The position numbers and the translations under genes were made by a program. Of a stretch of 64,000 nucleotides of DNA, positions 4,662-64,000 are shown in pieces. Under the pieces are notes generated by a model. That model was not told the DNA's origin. It worked only from the letters and a program-made list of their open reading frames with translations, and did no database searches. Every line of letters begins with the position of its first letter. The stretch's first letter is position 1. The DNA lies in NCBI GenBank assembly GCA_902785275.1, contig CACZYB010000001.1, positions 64,001 through 128,000 of the forward strand, given 5' to 3'. The stretch is from an uncultured Pseudomonadota bacterium (GTDB taxonomy: Bacteria > Pseudomonadota > Alphaproteobacteria > Rs-D84 > CACZYB01).

Positions 4662-5357
4662 TTAAACTAAAGTAATCTTAAGTTTTTCATCAATAATTCT
4701 TTTAGCAAATTGGAATGTTTCCTCTTTATTATTCAAAGATGTATCGATAAGTATAGCATCATCAGCCTGCTTCATAGGACTTGTTGCACGAGTTCTATCT
4801 GCCTCATCCCTTGCGATAATAGATGCAAGAACTTCTTGATAACTTGCAGATTCACCCTGATCCAAATATTGTTTCAATCTACGGCTTGCCCTTGTCTCTG
4901 GCGATGCAGTAATAAAGAATTTTATTGGTGCATTTGGGCAAATTACTGTTCCAATATCCCTACCTTCAATAATCGCACCTTTTGCAGGACGACCATCCTC
5001 TAATGCAGGAGGATTCTCACCAAAACTTATCTGATATTCACGCATAATTGCACGAATTTCAGGAATTTTTGCAACAGAAGCAACATATTTATTTGTAAGT
5101 TGTGAACGTATCTGTGGATTTCTTGCATAATCCAAAATCTTATGAGTATCAGAAAGTTCACGAGTAAGATTTATTGCAAACTCAAGATTAATATTATCCA
5201 TATCGTGTTTTTTTTCAATCATACAAAGAGTAATTGCACGATACAAACTTCCTGTATCAAGACCGGCAAAACCATAATAATCACAAAGTCTTTTTGTTAA
5301 AGTTCCCTTTCCTGCACCTGCAGGTCCATCAATTGCAATTATATTTTTATTTGCCAT
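4662..5357 (-). CDS. cmk: cytidylate kinase
   Basis: IAIDGPAGAGKGT P-loop, LDTGSLYRA, EGRDIGTVICPNA. Confidence 0.97.
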   Translation of the reverse strand: MANKNIIAIDGPAGAGKGTLTKRLCDYYGFAGLDTGSLYRAITLCMIEKKHDMDNINLEFAINLTRELSDTHKILDYARNPQIRSQLTNKYVASVAKIPEIRAIMREYQISFGENPPALEDGRPAKGAIIEGRDIGTVICPNAPIKFFITASPETRASRRLKQYLDQGESASYQEVLASIIARDEADRTRATSPMKQADDAILIDTSLNNKEETFQFAKRIIDEKLKITLV

Positions 5358-6752: not shown

Positions 6753-8444
6753 TTATGGTTTCTTTGGGCCATCTTTTGCCATTTTTTCCATTAATTCAAA
6801 ATATTTACCAAACGAAGATTCTTCTTCGGCACCCTTTCCTTCAATTTTACTTTTTTCGCTAATAAAGTTATCTTTACTTCTAAGCAATGCTTCAACAATC
6901 GCATCAATATCGCCATCGGTATAGTCAAAGTCATACTTTACATCAATAGCAGTCTCAAAACCATTTCCTTCACAATTAAATTGATCCACAGTTTTAAGTT
7001 TATTTACAGTATCTCTTAAATCACTAACAGCAGGTATTTCAATCAAATTTGGCAAATCATCTGGACGTTTATTCATTGCATAAACCAAAATTTTCTTAAG
7101 ATTTGTAATAATCTTTTTATTTTCACTTTTCTTAAGAAGTTCCGTTTTATTTTCAATATATTTCTCAAGCTCAGCAACCGCTTTATCAAGATTTTCCAAA
7201 ACAGATTTTACATTATTTGTAACTGTATCCACATCCCCAGAACAAGAGTTAAGAATTTTTTCATCTCTATCTGCCTGTGGATAAAGATTCTTTCCAGACT
7301 TATCAAGAAGCCCCGACTTTTTCAAACGTTCTGCCTTATCTTCTGATACAAGAGCAACAGTATTATCAACAACGAAATCAAATACACCTTTAAGAATACC
7401 TTTCTTTGCAACTGCACGTTCCAATGATGATCTGTTATCAACAAGTTCAAACGAAGTATCTTCCATATCAGATGTAAAACTCTTTCCACATGCAGTTTCA
7501 CCCTCTGTCACAAAAGTATTTGCAATAGTAACCAACTCTCTTGGATAAGTATTGGATTTCATATTAAGTTTCAAATCGGCAAGCTTACCAATCTGCCCAA
7601 CATAATTCCATGTATTGTCGCCAACATTCGCAAACAAACTTGCAACCGTAGATGAAAGTTTTTTCTTTCCTTGGAAACCATCTGAATCAAATGCAACGGT
7701 GCCATCAGAAGAAATTTTTCCCATACCAAAATATGTGTTCATATCTTCTGTACTTAAATCATCAAGTGCAATAGTTTTGTATTTTTTAAGTATTGCATCA
7801 CGACCACAACGTTCATCAATTCCTTTATCCAAATCAGAAATTTTTGATGCACTAAAAATTCCACCAACAGATTGATTCTTTTCCGCCTCAATATATTGGA
7901 AACAATCCTGTGCCGCAGAATATTTTGCCATTGCCATATTACAATTTTTTCTGTCCCTTACACTGCTTTCAGAATACAAATCCCAAAGTCCATCCAAAAG
8001 TTCAGATTGAAAGGCCGCACAAAAAGTACTTAAATTTTTTCCACTACAACGTGCACCATCAACATCCGCCGAAACACCGGACAATGCTGACAAATCAAAA
8101 TTAAAGGAAAGTTCCACCTTAAGCTTGCTTTGGCAAGAATAACTTTTACAATAAACTTTCAATGCATCAGCCATAGCCAAAGCGCACAAACGTTTTGCCG
8201 AAGCATTTGTTACATCCGCAGGCACACCACAACTCATCTTTGAAGAAGCGTCTACTTTATATGCTTCACGCACAGTCCCAGAAAATTTATTTGATTGAAC
8301 CTTTCCAGAAATATTTTTCACAGATACAGATCTGCTACTTCTCCCACTTGCACGCGAAGTTTTCTTCGTCGCACAAAAAGCCCTGTCCTCCTTCACTACA
8401 ACAAAGCCACACAAAATAAGCAATGTGAAAAATACTTTTCTCAT
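6753..8444 (-). CDS. secreted Cys-rich hypothetical protein, paralog family A
   Basis: N-terminal signal peptide and basic Ser-rich tract; shares blocks (NCxxA...A..CF; SSLER...KGILKG...ED.A) with 13026..14027 and 14045..15493. Confidence 0.8.
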   Translation of the reverse strand: MRKVFFTLLILCGFVVVKEDRAFCATKKTSRASGRSSRSVSVKNISGKVQSNKFSGTVREAYKVDASSKMSCGVPADVTNASAKRLCALAMADALKVYCKSYSCQSKLKVELSFNFDLSALSGVSADVDGARCSGKNLSTFCAAFQSELLDGLWDLYSESSVRDRKNCNMAMAKYSAAQDCFQYIEAEKNQSVGGIFSASKISDLDKGIDERCGRDAILKKYKTIALDDLSTEDMNTYFGMGKISSDGTVAFDSDGFQGKKKLSSTVASLFANVGDNTWNYVGQIGKLADLKLNMKSNTYPRELVTIANTFVTEGETACGKSFTSDMEDTSFELVDNRSSLERAVAKKGILKGVFDFVVDNTVALVSEDKAERLKKSGLLDKSGKNLYPQADRDEKILNSCSGDVDTVTNNVKSVLENLDKAVAELEKYIENKTELLKKSENKKIITNLKKILVYAMNKRPDDLPNLIEIPAVSDLRDTVNKLKTVDQFNCEGNGFETAIDVKYDFDYTDGDIDAIVEALLRSKDNFISEKSKIEGKGAEEESSFGKYFELMEKMAKDGPKKP

Positions 8445-18636: not shown

Positions 18637-19899
18637 TTACAATGCTTTCTCACACTTTTCGGCCATATCACTATCTTTTTTAGCTTTAGATATCTGTACA
18701 GCGGAAAGTGTTGTCGAAGTTGCCGAAGTACCAAGAGTTACACCAGCCAAAATATTTGACGCAGTATTCAAATTTTTTTCCTTCTTTTTACCTGCTTCAG
18801 TATTGTCATTACGAACACTGTCTTTGTTTGCCATAAATGAAGTAACAGTACCCGCACCCGCAGTCATTGTACCAATACCAGAAACAATACTATTTGCTGT
18901 GGCAAGGTTTTTAAGTGATTTAATATTTCCTTCATCATAACCTGTACATACAGAAAGTATATTATTTGCACTTACAACCAAAGTATCAGTTGCTTCAACT
19001 TCCTCCGCCTCAGCAGTTGCTTTAGCCAAACGAAGTTCAGACAATGCGCTATTACAGCTAGACATTTTTTCTGCAAGCTTGGTTGCACTAAGTGTCGCAC
19101 CAATCGATGTTCCTGTAGATACAGCAGATGTCAAAGTTGCACCAGCCATCAAACCAGTTCTAACATGCCCCAAAGTCTTTGATGTCTTTTCATCCTTGGC
19201 AATCTCTGCCCTTAATGCTTCTGCATCCTTATCCAAATCAGACAAAGCAGAGGCCACAGACTTCTTTAAATTTTCTTCACTACTTGTATCCAAAGAAATA
19301 TCTTTAGGTGTCAAAAGGTTAAGTTCAGCTTCTTTTTCCTCAATCTTTTTATCTTTGTTTGCCTTAACTAATCCAACAGCTAAAGCACCACCAGAAACAA
19401 GAGTTCCTAAACCAGAAGATACAGTTGTTGCAACACTCAAACCAAATATTGTATCAAGGTTTGATTTAATACCTGAACATTCATTTCTTACATTATCAAG
19501 TTTTGATGAAAGGCTTTCTTTTGCCTTTTTCAAAGATTCGTTTTTCTTTTCTTCCTCTTTTTTCTTCATATTTGCAATAAGATCGTTATTTGCCTGAAGT
19601 TCATCTCTTACAACAGCCCTTACCGCATCAACATCATTTGTTACACTGTTATCAATAATTTTTGTTTCAACAACAGGTGTACTTGTAACCACAGGTTCAG
19701 AAGCAACAACTGCTTTTTTCTCCTCAACTATTGCCTCAACATCCTTAACATCGACACTTGTTTTCTTTGACATTTTTTTCACTGCTGAAACTCTTTTCTT
19801 ATTTGATCCAGCACGCTTTTTTGATGGTTTTGAATACGCAATCGCAGATTCAAGTGAAATTGCCAATACCAAAGTTAATACAGAAACTTTTTTAAACAT
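18637..19899 (-). CDS. secreted protein, paralog family B (two Cys-bracketed Gly/Ala/Thr-rich hydrophobic hairpin units)
   Basis: Signal peptide and basic tract; unit 1 ECSGI...SGLGTLVSGGALAVG...RTGLMAGA...SSCNSAL; unit 2 VCTGY...SGIGTMTAGAGTVTS...LAGVTLG...EKCEKAL. Confidence 0.8.
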   Translation of the reverse strand: MFKKVSVLTLVLAISLESAIAYSKPSKKRAGSNKKRVSAVKKMSKKTSVDVKDVEAIVEEKKAVVASEPVVTSTPVVETKIIDNSVTNDVDAVRAVVRDELQANNDLIANMKKKEEEKKNESLKKAKESLSSKLDNVRNECSGIKSNLDTIFGLSVATTVSSGLGTLVSGGALAVGLVKANKDKKIEEKEAELNLLTPKDISLDTSSEENLKKSVASALSDLDKDAEALRAEIAKDEKTSKTLGHVRTGLMAGATLTSAVSTGTSIGATLSATKLAEKMSSCNSALSELRLAKATAEAEEVEATDTLVVSANNILSVCTGYDEGNIKSLKNLATANSIVSGIGTMTAGAGTVTSFMANKDSVRNDNTEAGKKKEKNLNTASNILAGVTLGTSATSTTLSAVQISKAKKDSDMAEKCEKAL

Positions 19900-20736: not shown

Positions 20737-20917
20737 AATTTATCTCTCCTCCTTCTACATCAAATTAAATCAAAAGGAATAACTATTCCAACTTAACTTT
20801 TCTAAATATATCATAATTCGCAAACAAAAGCAATAAATTCTCAAAACACAAATAAAAAAACACACTATCAAATCATTCAATAGTGTAAAATTTCAAGAAC
20901 AAACTCATACATAAAAT

Positions 20918-22525
20918 TTATTTTTCACAATCAAAAATTACATCCAAATTTTGATTGTAAAGTTTTGTATCTGTTTTTGTAAGTCCCAACATTGTATGGA
21001 ACAAATTATCATGAGAAATATTTTTCCATACCTTATTTTTCAAACAATTTAAACTAACTCCTGTATTTTTCAACATACTATCAGAAAACCACATGATAAA
21101 CGGAACTGTTTTTTGCTCTTTCGGAGCAATTCTATAAGGCAAACCATGCAAATAAATTCCACCTTCACCCAAACTTTCACCATGATCAGAAACATACAAA
21201 AGACTTGTTTCATAATTTTTATATTGCTTCAATTTTTCAATTACTTTTGATACAAAATAATCTGTATACAAAATAGTATTATCGTAAGTATTTACCAATT
21301 CTTCCTCAGAACAATTTTGTATATTAATAGTATCACAAGCAGGTTTGAATTTTTCAAATTCCTTTGAATACCTTTTATAATACGATGGTCCGTGTGATCC
21401 CATAGTATGCAAAACAATCATTGTATTTTTATCTGCATTCTTAAGATTATTTTCCAAATAAGATATCAACGCATTATCACGACAAAAATCGCCAAAGCAA
21501 TCTTCGCTATTTCCTATGCTAACAATATTATAGCTTTCCACCCTATTACATACTTTTTTACAACCATCATCATTTTCATACCAAACAACATTCCATCCAG
21601 CCTTTTTCACTATATCCAAAAGATTTTCTTCATACCCAGAATAAGCTATATCAAAATCACTTCTTTTCTTTGCTGAAAACATACATGGCACAGACAAAGC
21701 TGTAGCCGTACCACATGATGTTACATCAGGAACCGCAACAATATTTGCTTCATTTTTCATCAATGGATTTGTTTCTTTTTTATATCCATATAATGAAAAG
21801 TTTTGAGCCCTTGCTGTCTCCCCAACAACCAAAACAACTATATGAACATTTTTATCTTTTATTTTAGATTTCACATTATCATCAAGTATAATAAACTTCT
21901 TTGGCGTCTTCAAAGATTTATTTATATATTTCAAAGTATTCACAACATAATTTAATGTATTATACTGGGCTTTTATTTCACTGTTATTTCTTCCAAATGG
22001 AACCAAAAATTTTCCAAACAAAAGTAAATAAATAATGATTAAAAATATCGATATTCCAGACATACACAATCTTTTTATTACCTCTTGCTTAAATGAATAA
22101 AAAGTTATTTTCAACTTAGCTACAAATATCGATGGAACTATACCAAAAATCATTACATTAATGATAAGAGGTAATGAAATCAAATCTAATGCCTCTCTCG
22201 TATTTGTCTCAAAAACATTTCTTATCATACTATAATCTATATAAACACCCATCTTAAGCATCATATAGTTAGTAGCACTTGATAAAATCAAAATAAAATA
22301 GCTAAGTGGTTTTATAACAGACTTCAGTAAAATTAAATTTAAAAAAAGATATATTGGCAAAGGTACTATAAATATTAAAAAAGCCACGCATAAAAATTGC
22401 ATTACTCCTGAAATTTGGAAATTCAAAAACAATGTTTTAAAAAAAGATATATTCAAAACAAAACTTAAATATAATGATAAAAAGAATATATATTTATTAC
22501 TTGAAATTTTTAAATTCTTAAACAT
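20918..22525 (-). CDS. eptA: lipid A phosphoethanolamine transferase (EptA/MCR family)
   Basis: Five N-terminal TM helices; VVGETARAQNF, SCGTATALSVPCMF (catalytic Thr), LHTMGSHGPSY and SDHGESLGE..YLHG all intact. Confidence 0.95.
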   Translation of the reverse strand: MFKNLKISSNKYIFFLSLYLSFVLNISFFKTLFLNFQISGVMQFLCVAFLIFIVPLPIYLFLNLILLKSVIKPLSYFILILSSATNYMMLKMGVYIDYSMIRNVFETNTREALDLISLPLIINVMIFGIVPSIFVAKLKITFYSFKQEVIKRLCMSGISIFLIIIYLLLFGKFLVPFGRNNSEIKAQYNTLNYVVNTLKYINKSLKTPKKFIILDDNVKSKIKDKNVHIVVLVVGETARAQNFSLYGYKKETNPLMKNEANIVAVPDVTSCGTATALSVPCMFSAKKRSDFDIAYSGYEENLLDIVKKAGWNVVWYENDDGCKKVCNRVESYNIVSIGNSEDCFGDFCRDNALISYLENNLKNADKNTMIVLHTMGSHGPSYYKRYSKEFEKFKPACDTINIQNCSEEELVNTYDNTILYTDYFVSKVIEKLKQYKNYETSLLYVSDHGESLGEGGIYLHGLPYRIAPKEQKTVPFIMWFSDSMLKNTGVSLNCLKNKVWKNISHDNLFHTMLGLTKTDTKLYNQNLDVIFDCEK

Positions 22526-22543
22526 TTTAACCTAATTTCACTG

Positions 22544-22569
22544 TATCAAAAACCAACGTCTATTTGATA
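22544..22569. repeat. left recombination site (IRL) of an invertible segment
   Basis: TATCAAAAACC-AA-CGTCTATTTGATA. The core ACCAACGTCTA (22552-22562) is the exact reverse complement of 22660-22670. Confidence 0.8.
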
Positions 22570-22614
22570 GGGTTTTATGTAGATATTGAATATGCTTAAT
22601 TTTCTAAATTTTGA

Positions 22615-22643
22615 TTGACTTTGAGAGTAAATTTTCCTAAGAT
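22615..22643 (+). promoter_or_regulatory. sigma70 promoter inside the invertible segment
   Basis: TTGACT(22615-20)-17 nt-TAAGAT(22638-43); currently points at the invertase and away from eptA. Confidence 0.75.
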
Positions 22644-22650
22644 TAAGAAG

Positions 22651-22680
22651 TATTAAATCTAGACGTTGGTCTATTTGATA
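22651..22680. repeat. right recombination site (IRR) of an invertible segment
   Basis: TATTAAATCTAGACG-TT-GGTCTATTTGATA; contains AGACGTTGGT, one mismatch from the Mpi core ARACGTWCGT. Confidence 0.8.
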
Positions 22681-22761
22681 TATCTAATTTTAATAGCAAA
22701 CATTAGGTAAAATCTGATAGTTCTTATGATTGTAAAAACAACAAATTATAGGAGCTAAAAA

Positions 22762-23361
22762 ATGATTTATGGATATACCAGAGTTTCAACAGAATTACAA
22801 AACACAGAAAACCAAAAACACGAAATTCAAACCTTCGCCAAAGCTCAAAAAATCAGTATTGACCGATGGGTGGATGAGGTAATTTCTTCACGAAAATCAT
22901 TAAAAGAAAGACGTCTTGGAAAACTTTTAAAACACCTTAAAAAAGGAGACATTTTAATTGCATCAGAATTATCAAGATTAGGAAGAAATTTGCTTGAAGT
23001 TATGGGGATTTTGCAAAGTTGCCTTGAGAAAGACTGTCAGATTTGGACATTAAAAGAAAACTATAAACTTGGAGCAGATATTCAATCAAAAGTTCTAGCT
23101 TTTGCCTTTTCCTTAGCAGCAGAAATTGAGAGACAGCTTATCTCACAACGTACAAAAGAGTCATTAAAACGACTTAAAGATGAAGGTAAACACCTTGGCC
23201 GACCACACGGATTTAACTACAATAAACTTGATGCAAAGAAAGAAAAAATCAAAGAACTTCTTAATAAACAAGTTTCCAAAGCCGAAATCGCCCGTCTTAT
23301 CGGCTGTTCCTGGCTTACCCTACACAGATACGTAAAGGAAAAAATACTCCCTACAAAATAG
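22762..23361 (+). CDS. Mpi-family serine DNA invertase
   Basis: MIYGYTRVST (catalytic Ser), SELSRLGRNL, the Mpi-typical DIQSKVLAFAFSLAAEIERQLISQRTKE, LGRP and a C-terminal HTH; AGGAG RBS. Confidence 0.93.
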   Translation: MIYGYTRVSTELQNTENQKHEIQTFAKAQKISIDRWVDEVISSRKSLKERRLGKLLKHLKKGDILIASELSRLGRNLLEVMGILQSCLEKDCQIWTLKENYKLGADIQSKVLAFAFSLAAEIERQLISQRTKESLKRLKDEGKHLGRPHGFNYNKLDAKKEKIKELLNKQVSKAEIARLIGCSWLTLHRYVKEKILPTK

Positions 23362-62783: not shown

Positions 62784-64000
62784 CTATCTTATAACATCAA
62801 CCAACATTGACATATTTAAAATTTTTAATTTATAAGGTTCTGACCCTTGAATTTTAAACAAAGGCAACTCATAGTTTTTAATAAAACCTTTTCCTCTTAT
62901 CTTCACATCTCCCGAAAAATATTCACCATTGTTTAAGTTTATAATCTTAAGCCCAGCCCCAGTATCCACCTGAAGCATTTGTGAATCCATCAACCTTAAA
63001 TTAAGTTCCAAAAGTCTTACCGCTTTTGGAATAAAGCTTGAACCCACAAAAACAGGTAAAGGACAAAAGACGTGCTTAAAAGGAAGACCAATAACAATAT
63101 TTTTACAAGGTTTCGGCAAATTAATTTCATTATCTTCAACCTTCAGTTTATAAATTTCTCCATCAGCAATAACCGTAACATCTTTATCATTCAAAAAACC
63201 TAAATCACTCACAGTTGTAACCGCCTCATCAAAAACAAATGTCTTTGCACAATCAAGATTATAATCATAATCGAACACTTCCAAACTGTACATTCCATTA
63301 CGTTCCACAACTACATAAGTTTTATCAAAAACGACCGCCACAGATAAAAACTTTCCATCCGTTTTGTATTGCACCCACGCATTTATATTATGAGACTTGT
63401 TTGAAAGTAACACTGCCAAAGTTCCATCTTCCTGTACAACATAAAGTATTCTTTTCTTCACATTAAAATCTTGCTCTAATGGATTACTAAGCAAATGTGA
63501 AGACAGTAAAATCAAATCTTGCGAAGAATAATTTTCAGAAAGATCCCCATAAAAAAATTCACGTATTTCCTTTTTATTTCTTGCTATAAATATAGTCGAC
63601 CCCTCCACAAATTTCGGTGCAATATATCTATCCGAAACAGAACCTATCTTTGTTTGTTGGGTCACGGAAATATTTGACGGAGTAATTGGGTTACCCGTAA
63701 TCATCCACTCTGCATCCGAAGTAAACACCTGAAGATGACGACCCGAAAACACAGAAACAATTTGATTAACTTTATCGGAAAAGATATCAAATTCTATCGC
63801 TTCATCATCAAGCCCAGTTCCCAAATCAAAATTTAGATAATTTCCAATTTTTGAAAACCATAATCTATTTTTCAAAGATTTCGACCCACCAATAACAAGC
63901 CTATTTTGATAAAATGCAATACTTGATGGATACCCACGTTTATTTGAAAAAGCAGGTTCTTGCCAATCCATATCTGCATCTGTTGATTTCAATTCTACCA
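62784..64000 (-). CDS. podovirus tail tubular protein B (T7 gp12-like); 5' end outside the window
   Basis: GYPSSIAFYQNRLVIGG...LWFSKIGNYLNF...DDEAI, LQVFTSDAEW, NAW. The frame is open to the window edge (VELKST...). Confidence 0.85.
   Translation of the reverse strand, partial: VELKSTDADMDWQEPAFSNKRGYPSSIAFYQNRLVIGGSKSLKNRLWFSKIGNYLNFDLGTGLDDEAIEFDIFSDKVNQIVSVFSGRHLQVFTSDAEWMITGNPITPSNISVTQQTKIGSVSDRYIAPKFVEGSTIFIARNKKEIREFFYGDLSENYSSQDLILLSSHLLSNPLEQDFNVKKRILYVVQEDGTLAVLLSNKSHNINAWVQYKTDGKFLSVAVVFDKTYVVVERNGMYSLEVFDYDYNLDCAKTFVFDEAVTTVSDLGFLNDKDVTVIADGEIYKLKVEDNEINLPKPCKNIVIGLPFKHVFCPLPVFVGSSFIPKAVRLLELNLRLMDSQMLQVDTGAGLKIINLNNGEYFSGDVKIRGKGFIKNYELPLFKIQGSEPYKLKILNMSMLVDVIR

Follow-up and report, generated by a model that had tools for sequence, protein, structure and literature searches.

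A predicted promoter inverton at an eptA-type gene of an uncultured gut alphaproteobacterium, one of four switches sharing a recombination site type

Introduction

Can a gut alphaproteobacterium with a genome of about 1 Mb turn a lipid A-modifying enzyme on and off by inverting its promoter? The question is raised by a locus in a 64,000-nt stretch of DNA (hereafter, the window), in which an eptA-type phosphoethanolamine transferase gene and a gene for an Mpi-family serine DNA invertase are divergently oriented on either side of a short spacer. The window is part of contig C1 of the uncultured source genome G000 (G000:C1:64001-128000), which is 1.05 Mb in size and 95.7% complete; C3, C5 and C12 denote other contigs of the same genome. 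An earlier note on this DNA had described the divergent layout of a lipid A gene and an Mpi-type invertase gene, with inverted sites around a promoter, and this observation was confirmed here. Our analysis indicates that the spacer probably contains a functional inverton, flipped by an Mpi-family invertase between two 26-bp sites and switching eptA, and that it is one of four switches in this genome that share one site type.

Comparisons were made with a genus set of 14 genomes (the source genome and 13 others, including G009, G010 and G013) and with related loci, numbered with the prefix L, from gut metagenome-assembled genomes (MAGs) labelled Alphaproteobacteria and recovered from human, deer, rabbit and other samples. 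The sequencing runs containing window DNA are bovine gut metagenomes.

Results

Architecture of the eptA switch

The eptA-type gene, the predicted target of the switch, encodes 535 amino acids (aa) and occupies 20918-22525 on the minus strand, while the invertase gene encodes 199 aa and occupies 22762-23361 on the plus strand; the spacer between them is 236 nt long. Both open reading frames (ORFs) are intact and carry the expected Pfam domains, which agrees with the gene arrangement described earlier. The assignments were based on the ORF list, Pfam, NCBIfam and alignment to a solved relative (5fgn for the transferase, Gin for the invertase).

The 11-bp inverted repeats were found exactly as placed in the earlier note, with ACCAACGTCTA at 22552-22562, its reverse complement TAGACGTTGGT at 22660-22670, and 97 nt between the arms. 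Each repeat forms the core of an imperfect palindrome, TARAC(C/G) - AA - CGTYTA, and the two sites lie in inverted orientation. Delimited from the sequence, the repeats and the site pattern, the left recombination site (22544-22569) comprises the outer half TATCAAAAACC, the centre AA (22555-56) and the inner half CGTCTATTTGATA, and the right site (22655-22680) comprises the inner half AATCTAGACG, the centre TT (22666-67) and the outer half GGTCTATTTGATA. A direct repeat, GTCTATTTGATA, is also present at 22558-69 and 22669-80. The predicted invertible segment (22557-22665) measures 111 bp from centre to centre and is homologous to six other switches.

Inside the segment and facing away from eptA, as claimed, lies the promoter TTGACT-17-TAAGAT (22615-22643, plus strand), identified by a promoter scan and by the alignment of seven switches described below. 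It currently faces the invertase gene, whose leader in this orientation is 111 nt long and is reached by the promoter through the right site. Inversion about the site centres maps position x to 45222 - x and would move the end of the -10 hexamer to 22579. By arithmetic, this end would then lie 54 nt, and the transcription start about 47 nt, before the eptA ATG, in line with the distance of about 45 nt proposed earlier. The left site ends 18 nt from this ATG, and an AGG is found a few bases 5' of it. The scan listed no promoter on the eptA strand between the eptA ATG and the invertase ATG; thus, eptA should be silent as assembled.

Distribution and conservation of the recombination sites

The 18-mer of the left site had two matches in the window at up to three mismatches, against 0.06 expected. 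The match at 63932, a lone and weak half-site-like string without a partner, was attributed to chance. For the whole genome, we used a strict 15-position pattern, [AG]AC[CG]A[AC]CGTCTA[TG][AT]T, derived from the source genome's own sites. It matched nine times in 1.05 Mb, and all matches fell at four loci as inverted pairs or, once, as a triple. Because the pattern was built from these same sites, the count of nine is not independent evidence; that all matches gather into opposed pairs about 111 bp apart does not depend on its construction. Read backwards, the pattern had no match in any of the 14 genus genomes.

All nine sites share a common polarity, with an outer half ending in ..AC(C/G), a central AA or AC, and an inner half beginning with CGTCTA. 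By arithmetic, six of the eight strict-pattern pairs of the genus (C1, C12, C3, G009, G013 and G010) have centres exactly 111 bp apart; the remaining two pairs, both from C5, are spaced by 124 and 157 bp. An alignment of seven switches in promoter orientation, four in the source genome and three in congeneric species, had a mean column identity of 73%, and the TTG of the -35 element and the TAnnnT of the -10 element were invariant.

The repeats of Bacteroides fragilis are quoted as ARACGTTCGTN in PMC8375218, and the right-hand core TAGACGTTGGT (22660-70) agrees with this string at 9 of its 10 specified positions, which upholds the proposed Mpi-type repeat core. The consensus string as quoted in the earlier note was not found by literature search.

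Inversion within the switch family

Two MAGs from different samples contain orthologous switches in opposite orientations. Aligned directly, the 300-nt flanks of loci L043 and L045 show 94.3% and 96.0% identity; the inner 120 nt are 98.3% identical only as the reverse complement (62.5% in direct comparison). The break points coincide with the predicted site cores, and the L043 invertase is 78% identical to that of the window. The family therefore inverts at these sites. Within the genus, the inner half-sites of the G010 switch are swapped relative to the outer halves in comparison with G009 and G013, and the G010 promoter faces the target gene rather than the invertase. Reversed homology was also observed among non-orthologous switches (L038/L047, L039/L047, L045/L081 and C1/C5).

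Contig boundaries in the relatives were examined as well. The contig ended 22-307 nt upstream of the invertase gene in 7 of 58 related MAG loci, and in four of these seven (L044, L050, L055 and L069) the contig begins within a recombination site. Contig ends within sites are the assembly signature expected of both orientations, to which repeats among paralogous cassettes could contribute. A census of promoter orientation relied on a crude promoter score, and the automatic site finder mispaired some loci, including the eptA locus; only loci with a margin of at least 2 were used (15 of the 50 scored). The promoter faced the invertase in 11 of them and faced away from it in 4.

The invertase gene and its paralogues

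The window invertase narrowly passed the NCBIfam equivalog model NF009949 ("master DNA invertase Mpi family"), scoring 276.4 bits against a cut-off of 272 over residues 1-195 of 199, so that its description as an Mpi-type recombinase holds. The Pfam Resolvase domain spans residues 2-143. Among solved structures, the best match was Gin (E = 6.7e-13), with an alignment reaching residue 189, in which the invertase keeps the catalytic-serine motif YxRVS (GYxRVST), the motif LxRLGR and the E-helix block AExERxLIxxRT. NCBI already labels such proteins in alphaproteobacterial MAGs as Mpi family.

The source genome contains three Mpi-like invertase genes plus a dead one. The two paralogues of the window invertase fall below the NF009949 cut-off (266.6 and 204.3 bits), and the invertase at C5 is 85% identical to it. 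The third Mpi-like recombinase (G000:C1:218117-218704, minus strand; 204 bits) is 42% identical, and no recognisable switch was found beside it.

In the invertase leader, the fold of 22651-22780 predicted a stable hairpin at 22718-22757 (plus strand) that pairs the AGGAG ribosome-binding site. The free energy of this fold was -26.7 kcal/mol (z = -3.45), and none of 200 shuffles was equally stable. At the corresponding position, many relatives (loci L036-L078) carry a perfect 13-bp palindrome, CTTATAAATAGTT..AACTATTTATAAG. The hairpin suggests either translational control or a protein-binding operator.

Three further switches in the source genome

The earlier description of a self-contained two-gene switch proved too narrow, as the source genome, which has three Mpi-like invertase genes, contains four switches with a common site type, of which the eptA locus is one. 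Two of these four loci have no adjacent invertase.

Three recombination sites are present in the C5 switch (G000:C5:5420-5601, locus L089), with distances of 124 and 157 bp from the first centre to the other two. This switch is homologous to the eptA switch and reversed relative to its invertase, so that its promoter, TTGACT-17-TATATT, faces a leftward operon. The first gene of this operon is a catalytically degenerate invertase paralogue (48 bits on the Mpi model) with Thr in place of the conserved Arg of YxRVS; the operon further encodes two DUF4422 proteins, UDP-galactopyranose mutase (Glf) and a group-1 glycosyltransferase. Directly after the C5 invertase, at G000:C5:6634-8175 (plus strand), lies the gene for a 513-aa large serine recombinase with Resolvase, Recombinase and zinc-ribbon domains, the end of which overlaps a tRNA gene (8149-8222, minus strand). 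This region may represent an integrated element.

The C12 switch (G000:C12:10796-10931; 4796-4931 in locus L090) is flanked on one side by the 3' end of an rRNA operon, at a distance of about 200 nt from 5S, and on the other by an operon of three genes for unknown, mostly secreted proteins of 273, 247 and 321 aa. Its promoter faces the rRNA side, antisense to 5S, which corresponds to OFF for the three-gene operon. The C3 switch (G000:C3:36845-36965, locus L091) has AC/GT centres instead of AA/TT and is located beside a tRNA gene. Its promoter faces the tRNA side and away from a gene pair encoding proteins of 92 aa and 334 aa (signal peptide, weak DUF2490 match), again the OFF orientation. The right outer flank of the C3 switch contains 19 nt identical to the flank of the G010 switch, which is in the other orientation.

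In other MAGs (loci L037 and L070), the gene facing the switch encodes a protein of 959-1089 aa whose N-terminus resembles PLD-type nucleases/helicases by eye. If this resemblance holds, defence-type genes may also be under such switches.

Identity of the eptA product

The 535-aa protein contains the Pfam domains EptA_B_N (PF08019) and Sulfatase (PF00884) and passed the phosphoethanolamine--lipid A transferase domain model NF028537 (591.3 bits vs a cut-off of 500). The EptB and CptA models scored much lower (209.6 and 113 bits). All 12 listed models of MCR proteins have cut-offs far above the scores obtained, the best being an MCR-3-related model (443.4 bits vs 1075). Since the protein reaches neither the cut-off of any MCR model nor that of either EptA equivalog model, the "MCR-family" label of the earlier note was overstated.

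The best solved full-length relative is the Neisseria lipid A enzyme EptA (5fgn, 390 bits). The aligned positions E240, H383, D452-H453 and H465, which we take to be zinc and active-site residues, are conserved. The catalytic threonine position is also kept: SCGTATA in the query aligns with SCGTSTA of 5fgn, with Thr at position 280 as counted on the alignment, and Thr280 is given as the catalytic nucleophile of Neisseria EptA in PMC6111236. The genome encodes LpxC (257.7 bits) and a Kdo (3-deoxy-D-manno-octulosonic acid) transferase N-domain (166.7 bits), and the cell therefore makes lipid A. The enzyme appears closest to lipid A-specific EptA, with lipid A as its presumed substrate, and judging from its family the gene may confer resistance to polymyxin or host cationic peptides.

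Surroundings of eptA and its rarity in the lineage

Approximately 30 nt past the eptA stop codon, a terminator-like hairpin with 12 pairs (20849-20887, minus strand) was predicted by both the minimum free energy and the centroid folds, followed by the U-run GUUUUUUUAUUU. It was absent from the listing of the consensus terminator scan, for which the AT-rich stem is the suspected reason. Between this hairpin and the next gene, a TTGCTT-17-TATATT motif was found by eye. Given the hairpin with its U-run and then this motif, eptA is probably a single-gene transcription unit.

eptA is rare in this lineage. Homologues with 42-45% identity were detected in 3 of 200 other genomes of the order, on contigs of higher GC content, and homologues with 45-49% identity in 4 of 400 genomes of a class sample. 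The nearest proteins among 5.8 billion are 66% identical, and metagenome proteins of 54-66% identity exist. Among 77 related loci, eptA had a single weak match (L086, 29% identity over 257 residues), on the far side of the invertase. A search of the same 77 loci detected neither TolB nor rpoD nor the two ORFs that follow eptA. Since these neighbours do not recur, the position of the cassette here is unique among them.

A family of Ala/Ser/Thr-rich secreted proteins without a Pfam match connects this neighbourhood with the C12 switch; its members are encoded at 18637-19899 of the window (minus strand), G000:C12:8183-9148 and G000:C12:6566-8059. The window member, a 420-aa protein two genes downstream of eptA, is 66% identical to the product of the last gene of the C12 switch operon. 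This match suggests that eptA occupies the place of a surface-protein cassette that was formerly switched. The third family member, nearby on C12, has an N-terminus that looks alike by eye.

Discussion

Proposed mechanism

The eptA locus is very probably a real ON/OFF inverton, judging from its sites, its conserved promoter and its homologous switches. In the assembled orientation, the promoter would read into the invertase gene, leaving eptA without an evident promoter (OFF). After inversion, it would lie about 50 nt upstream of eptA (ON), and phosphoethanolamine would be added to lipid A in a subpopulation. For this locus itself, we infer both the flipping and the transcription from the promoter. 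Transcription of the invertase from its own switch would presumably be confined to the eptA-OFF state. Of the other three switches, one would control a glycan operon and two would each control a set of secreted or outer-membrane proteins, and several surface features would be varied via one recombinase family, as with Mpi in B. fragilis.

A number of observations weigh against this interpretation. The orientation of the eptA switch was checked in Logan contigs from four runs, and no flipped form was present in the contigs of two samples: in the probable source run, one contig of depth 22 spans the switch in the assembled orientation, and a 180-nt contig from an independent study has the same orientation. 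Because contigs drop minority variants, a single orientation neither supports nor excludes switching. Extra pieces of the source run at 22649-22683 were considered as flipped forms and rejected, as they belong to paralogous switches and their loose ends match the C12 and C5 flanks. A 24-mer across the left junction, common to both orientations, had no exact match in the Joint Genome Institute (JGI) metagenome collection; none of the 120 closest invertase clusters listed is JGI-sourced, and among eptA clusters JGI first appears at 50% identity. The earlier claim of inversion is borne out for the family (L043/L045; G010 vs G009 and G013), and for the eptA locus only the assembled, eptA-OFF state was seen in the contigs of two samples.

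Further adverse points concern the promoter, the geometry and the gene itself. The promoter hexamers match 9 of 12 consensus positions, which is not significant alone in AT-rich DNA, with 23 promoter-like sites against 16.7 ± 4.0 in shuffles; the promoter carries weight because its hexamers are conserved across the seven homologous switches. For the synapse of a serine invertase, 111 bp makes a short loop. Searches of the other 13 genus genomes (E <= 1e-30) detected no close eptA homologue, apart from paralogues of 27-29% identity in 2 of the 13, and no site-like repeats were found upstream of the homologues in the three order genomes. With the pairing of eptA and switch seen at this locus only, selection for their coupling is not inferable from recurrence. 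Moreover, the protein failed both EptA equivalog models (NF008619, 521.6 vs 660 bits; NF007160, 372.3 vs 561 bits), so that the acceptor substrate is not certain.

Alternative explanations

The single orientation in the contigs of two samples would also be seen if the eptA switch no longer flipped, or did so rarely, and were effectively fixed OFF, with eptA silent or transcribed from an unrecognised promoter; the apparently recent arrival of eptA in this lineage fits such a state. We consider it quite improbable, since both sites fit the strict consensus and share an exact 11-bp core, the invertase ORF is uninterrupted and retains its catalytic motif, the genome has two more Mpi-like invertase genes, and minority forms are invisible in contigs. 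A different possibility is that the switch mainly regulates the invertase itself, any effect on eptA being incidental read-through between chance neighbours. This would agree with the promoter facing the invertase in 11 of the 15 clearly scored loci, with the lack of synteny across 77 related loci, where the cassette of invertase and switch adjoins unrelated genes, and with the promoter scan, which found no second promoter-like site in the invertase leader. However, the C12 and C3 switches have no invertase alongside and yet keep their sites, promoter and 111-bp spacing, which argues that the purpose of the element is not merely invertase expression. On the side opposite the invertase, the other loci invariably have a gene start that faces away, and here the left site lies so close to the eptA ATG, with its ribosome-binding site, that a flipped promoter must transcribe eptA. 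Regulation of the invertase as the main role is therefore a very unlikely explanation.

The remaining alternative accepts the switch and concerns its product. Instead of lipid A phosphates, the enzyme might decorate, for example, Kdo or heptose in the lipopolysaccharide core, or a surface protein, in which case the outcome would be antigenic variation and not peptide resistance. The scores under both EptA equivalog cut-offs point in this direction, as does the breadth of the enzyme family, which also includes EptB and CptA and has protein-modifying members; furthermore, a second paralogue, 28% identical, is encoded elsewhere in the genome (G000:C6). In contrast, no solved structure matches the full length better than the Neisseria lipid A enzyme, and the lipid A transferase domain model was passed while EptB and CptA scored far lower. 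A different acceptor thus seems unlikely, though it deserves to be kept in view, and a phase-variable lipid A modification is the reading we favour.

Relation to known systems

Promoter inversion of this kind has a known counterpart in Mpi of B. fragilis, which is described as inverting 13 regions, seven of them polysaccharide (PS, capsule) promoters (PMC4747536). As in that system, a small serine invertase of the same NCBIfam family is found, one recombinase type would serve several distant promoter switches of surface structures, and most switches are OFF at any time. In contrast to B. fragilis, the host is an alphaproteobacterium with a genome of about 1 Mb and not a member of the Bacteroidales, the invertase gene is positioned immediately after a switch whose flippable promoter would transcribe it in the OFF state, and the genome encodes three paralogous invertases and one dead copy. 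What would be switched is a lipid A enzyme rather than a capsule locus, and the promoter is sigma-70-like rather than of the Bacteroides type. The segment is also shorter, at 111 bp compared with the 183-186 bp quoted for B. intestinalis (PMC8375218).

Like Hin/hix of Salmonella and the Gin, Cin and Pin systems, the window invertase combines an N-terminal catalytic domain with a C-terminal helix-turn-helix, and its gene adjoins its switch; the sites are likewise imperfect palindromes with a 2-bp centre whose asymmetry sets the polarity. In those systems the inverted segments are kilobases long, and the reaction depends on Fis and an enhancer. Unlike them, the window invertase is filed under Mpi by NCBIfam.

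A mucosal bacterium that reversibly switches a lipid A phosphoethanolamine transferase ON and OFF is already known: in Neisseria gonorrhoeae, phase variation of eptA (lptA) is attributed to slipped-strand mispairing in a poly-T tract within the coding sequence (PMC6111236). Here, the proposed mechanism is instead promoter inversion by a site-specific recombinase. An inverton placed before a gene able to lower drug susceptibility has its parallel in gut Bacteroidales (bioRxiv 10.1101/2021.04.26.441444). The main text of that report, whose title refers to Bacteroidales, contains no occurrence of polymyxin, colistin or phosphoethanolamine; with this one included, two inverton surveys lack polymyxin and colistin in their main text, and the supplementary tables of the large surveys might list a case. 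A search of the accessible literature returned no paper joining "inverton" with "phosphoethanolamine", or "phase-variable" with "eptA" and "invertible". The Mpi-type inverton is thus a known kind of switch, and eptA is a new target.

Implications

In this assembly, the eptA cassette is OFF, with its promoter toward the invertase, and the glycan cassette of C5 is ON. A speculative extension, which we regard as doubtful, is that the four switches and three invertase genes form a self-limiting network, in which a switch-linked invertase is transcribed only while its target is OFF. With the target ON, that invertase would lose its promoter; with both invertase-linked targets ON, most recombinase would be lost and the surface would be frozen. 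If so, a genome of about 1 Mb would deal lipid A charge, a galactofuranose-type glycan and two sets of surface proteins in a limited number of semi-stable combinations.

If the eptA switch works as read here, lipid A charge would be a further bet-hedged surface trait of a gut commensal, varied by promoter inversion. A resistance-type function could then be OFF in an assembled genome and missed by phenotype or expression surveys, although present in a minority of cells. The Mpi strategy would not be confined to Bacteroidales, occurring in a compact 111-bp form in uncultured gut Alphaproteobacteria with reduced genomes. For these uncultured bacteria, such switches may be the best available clue to the surface features that matter in the host.

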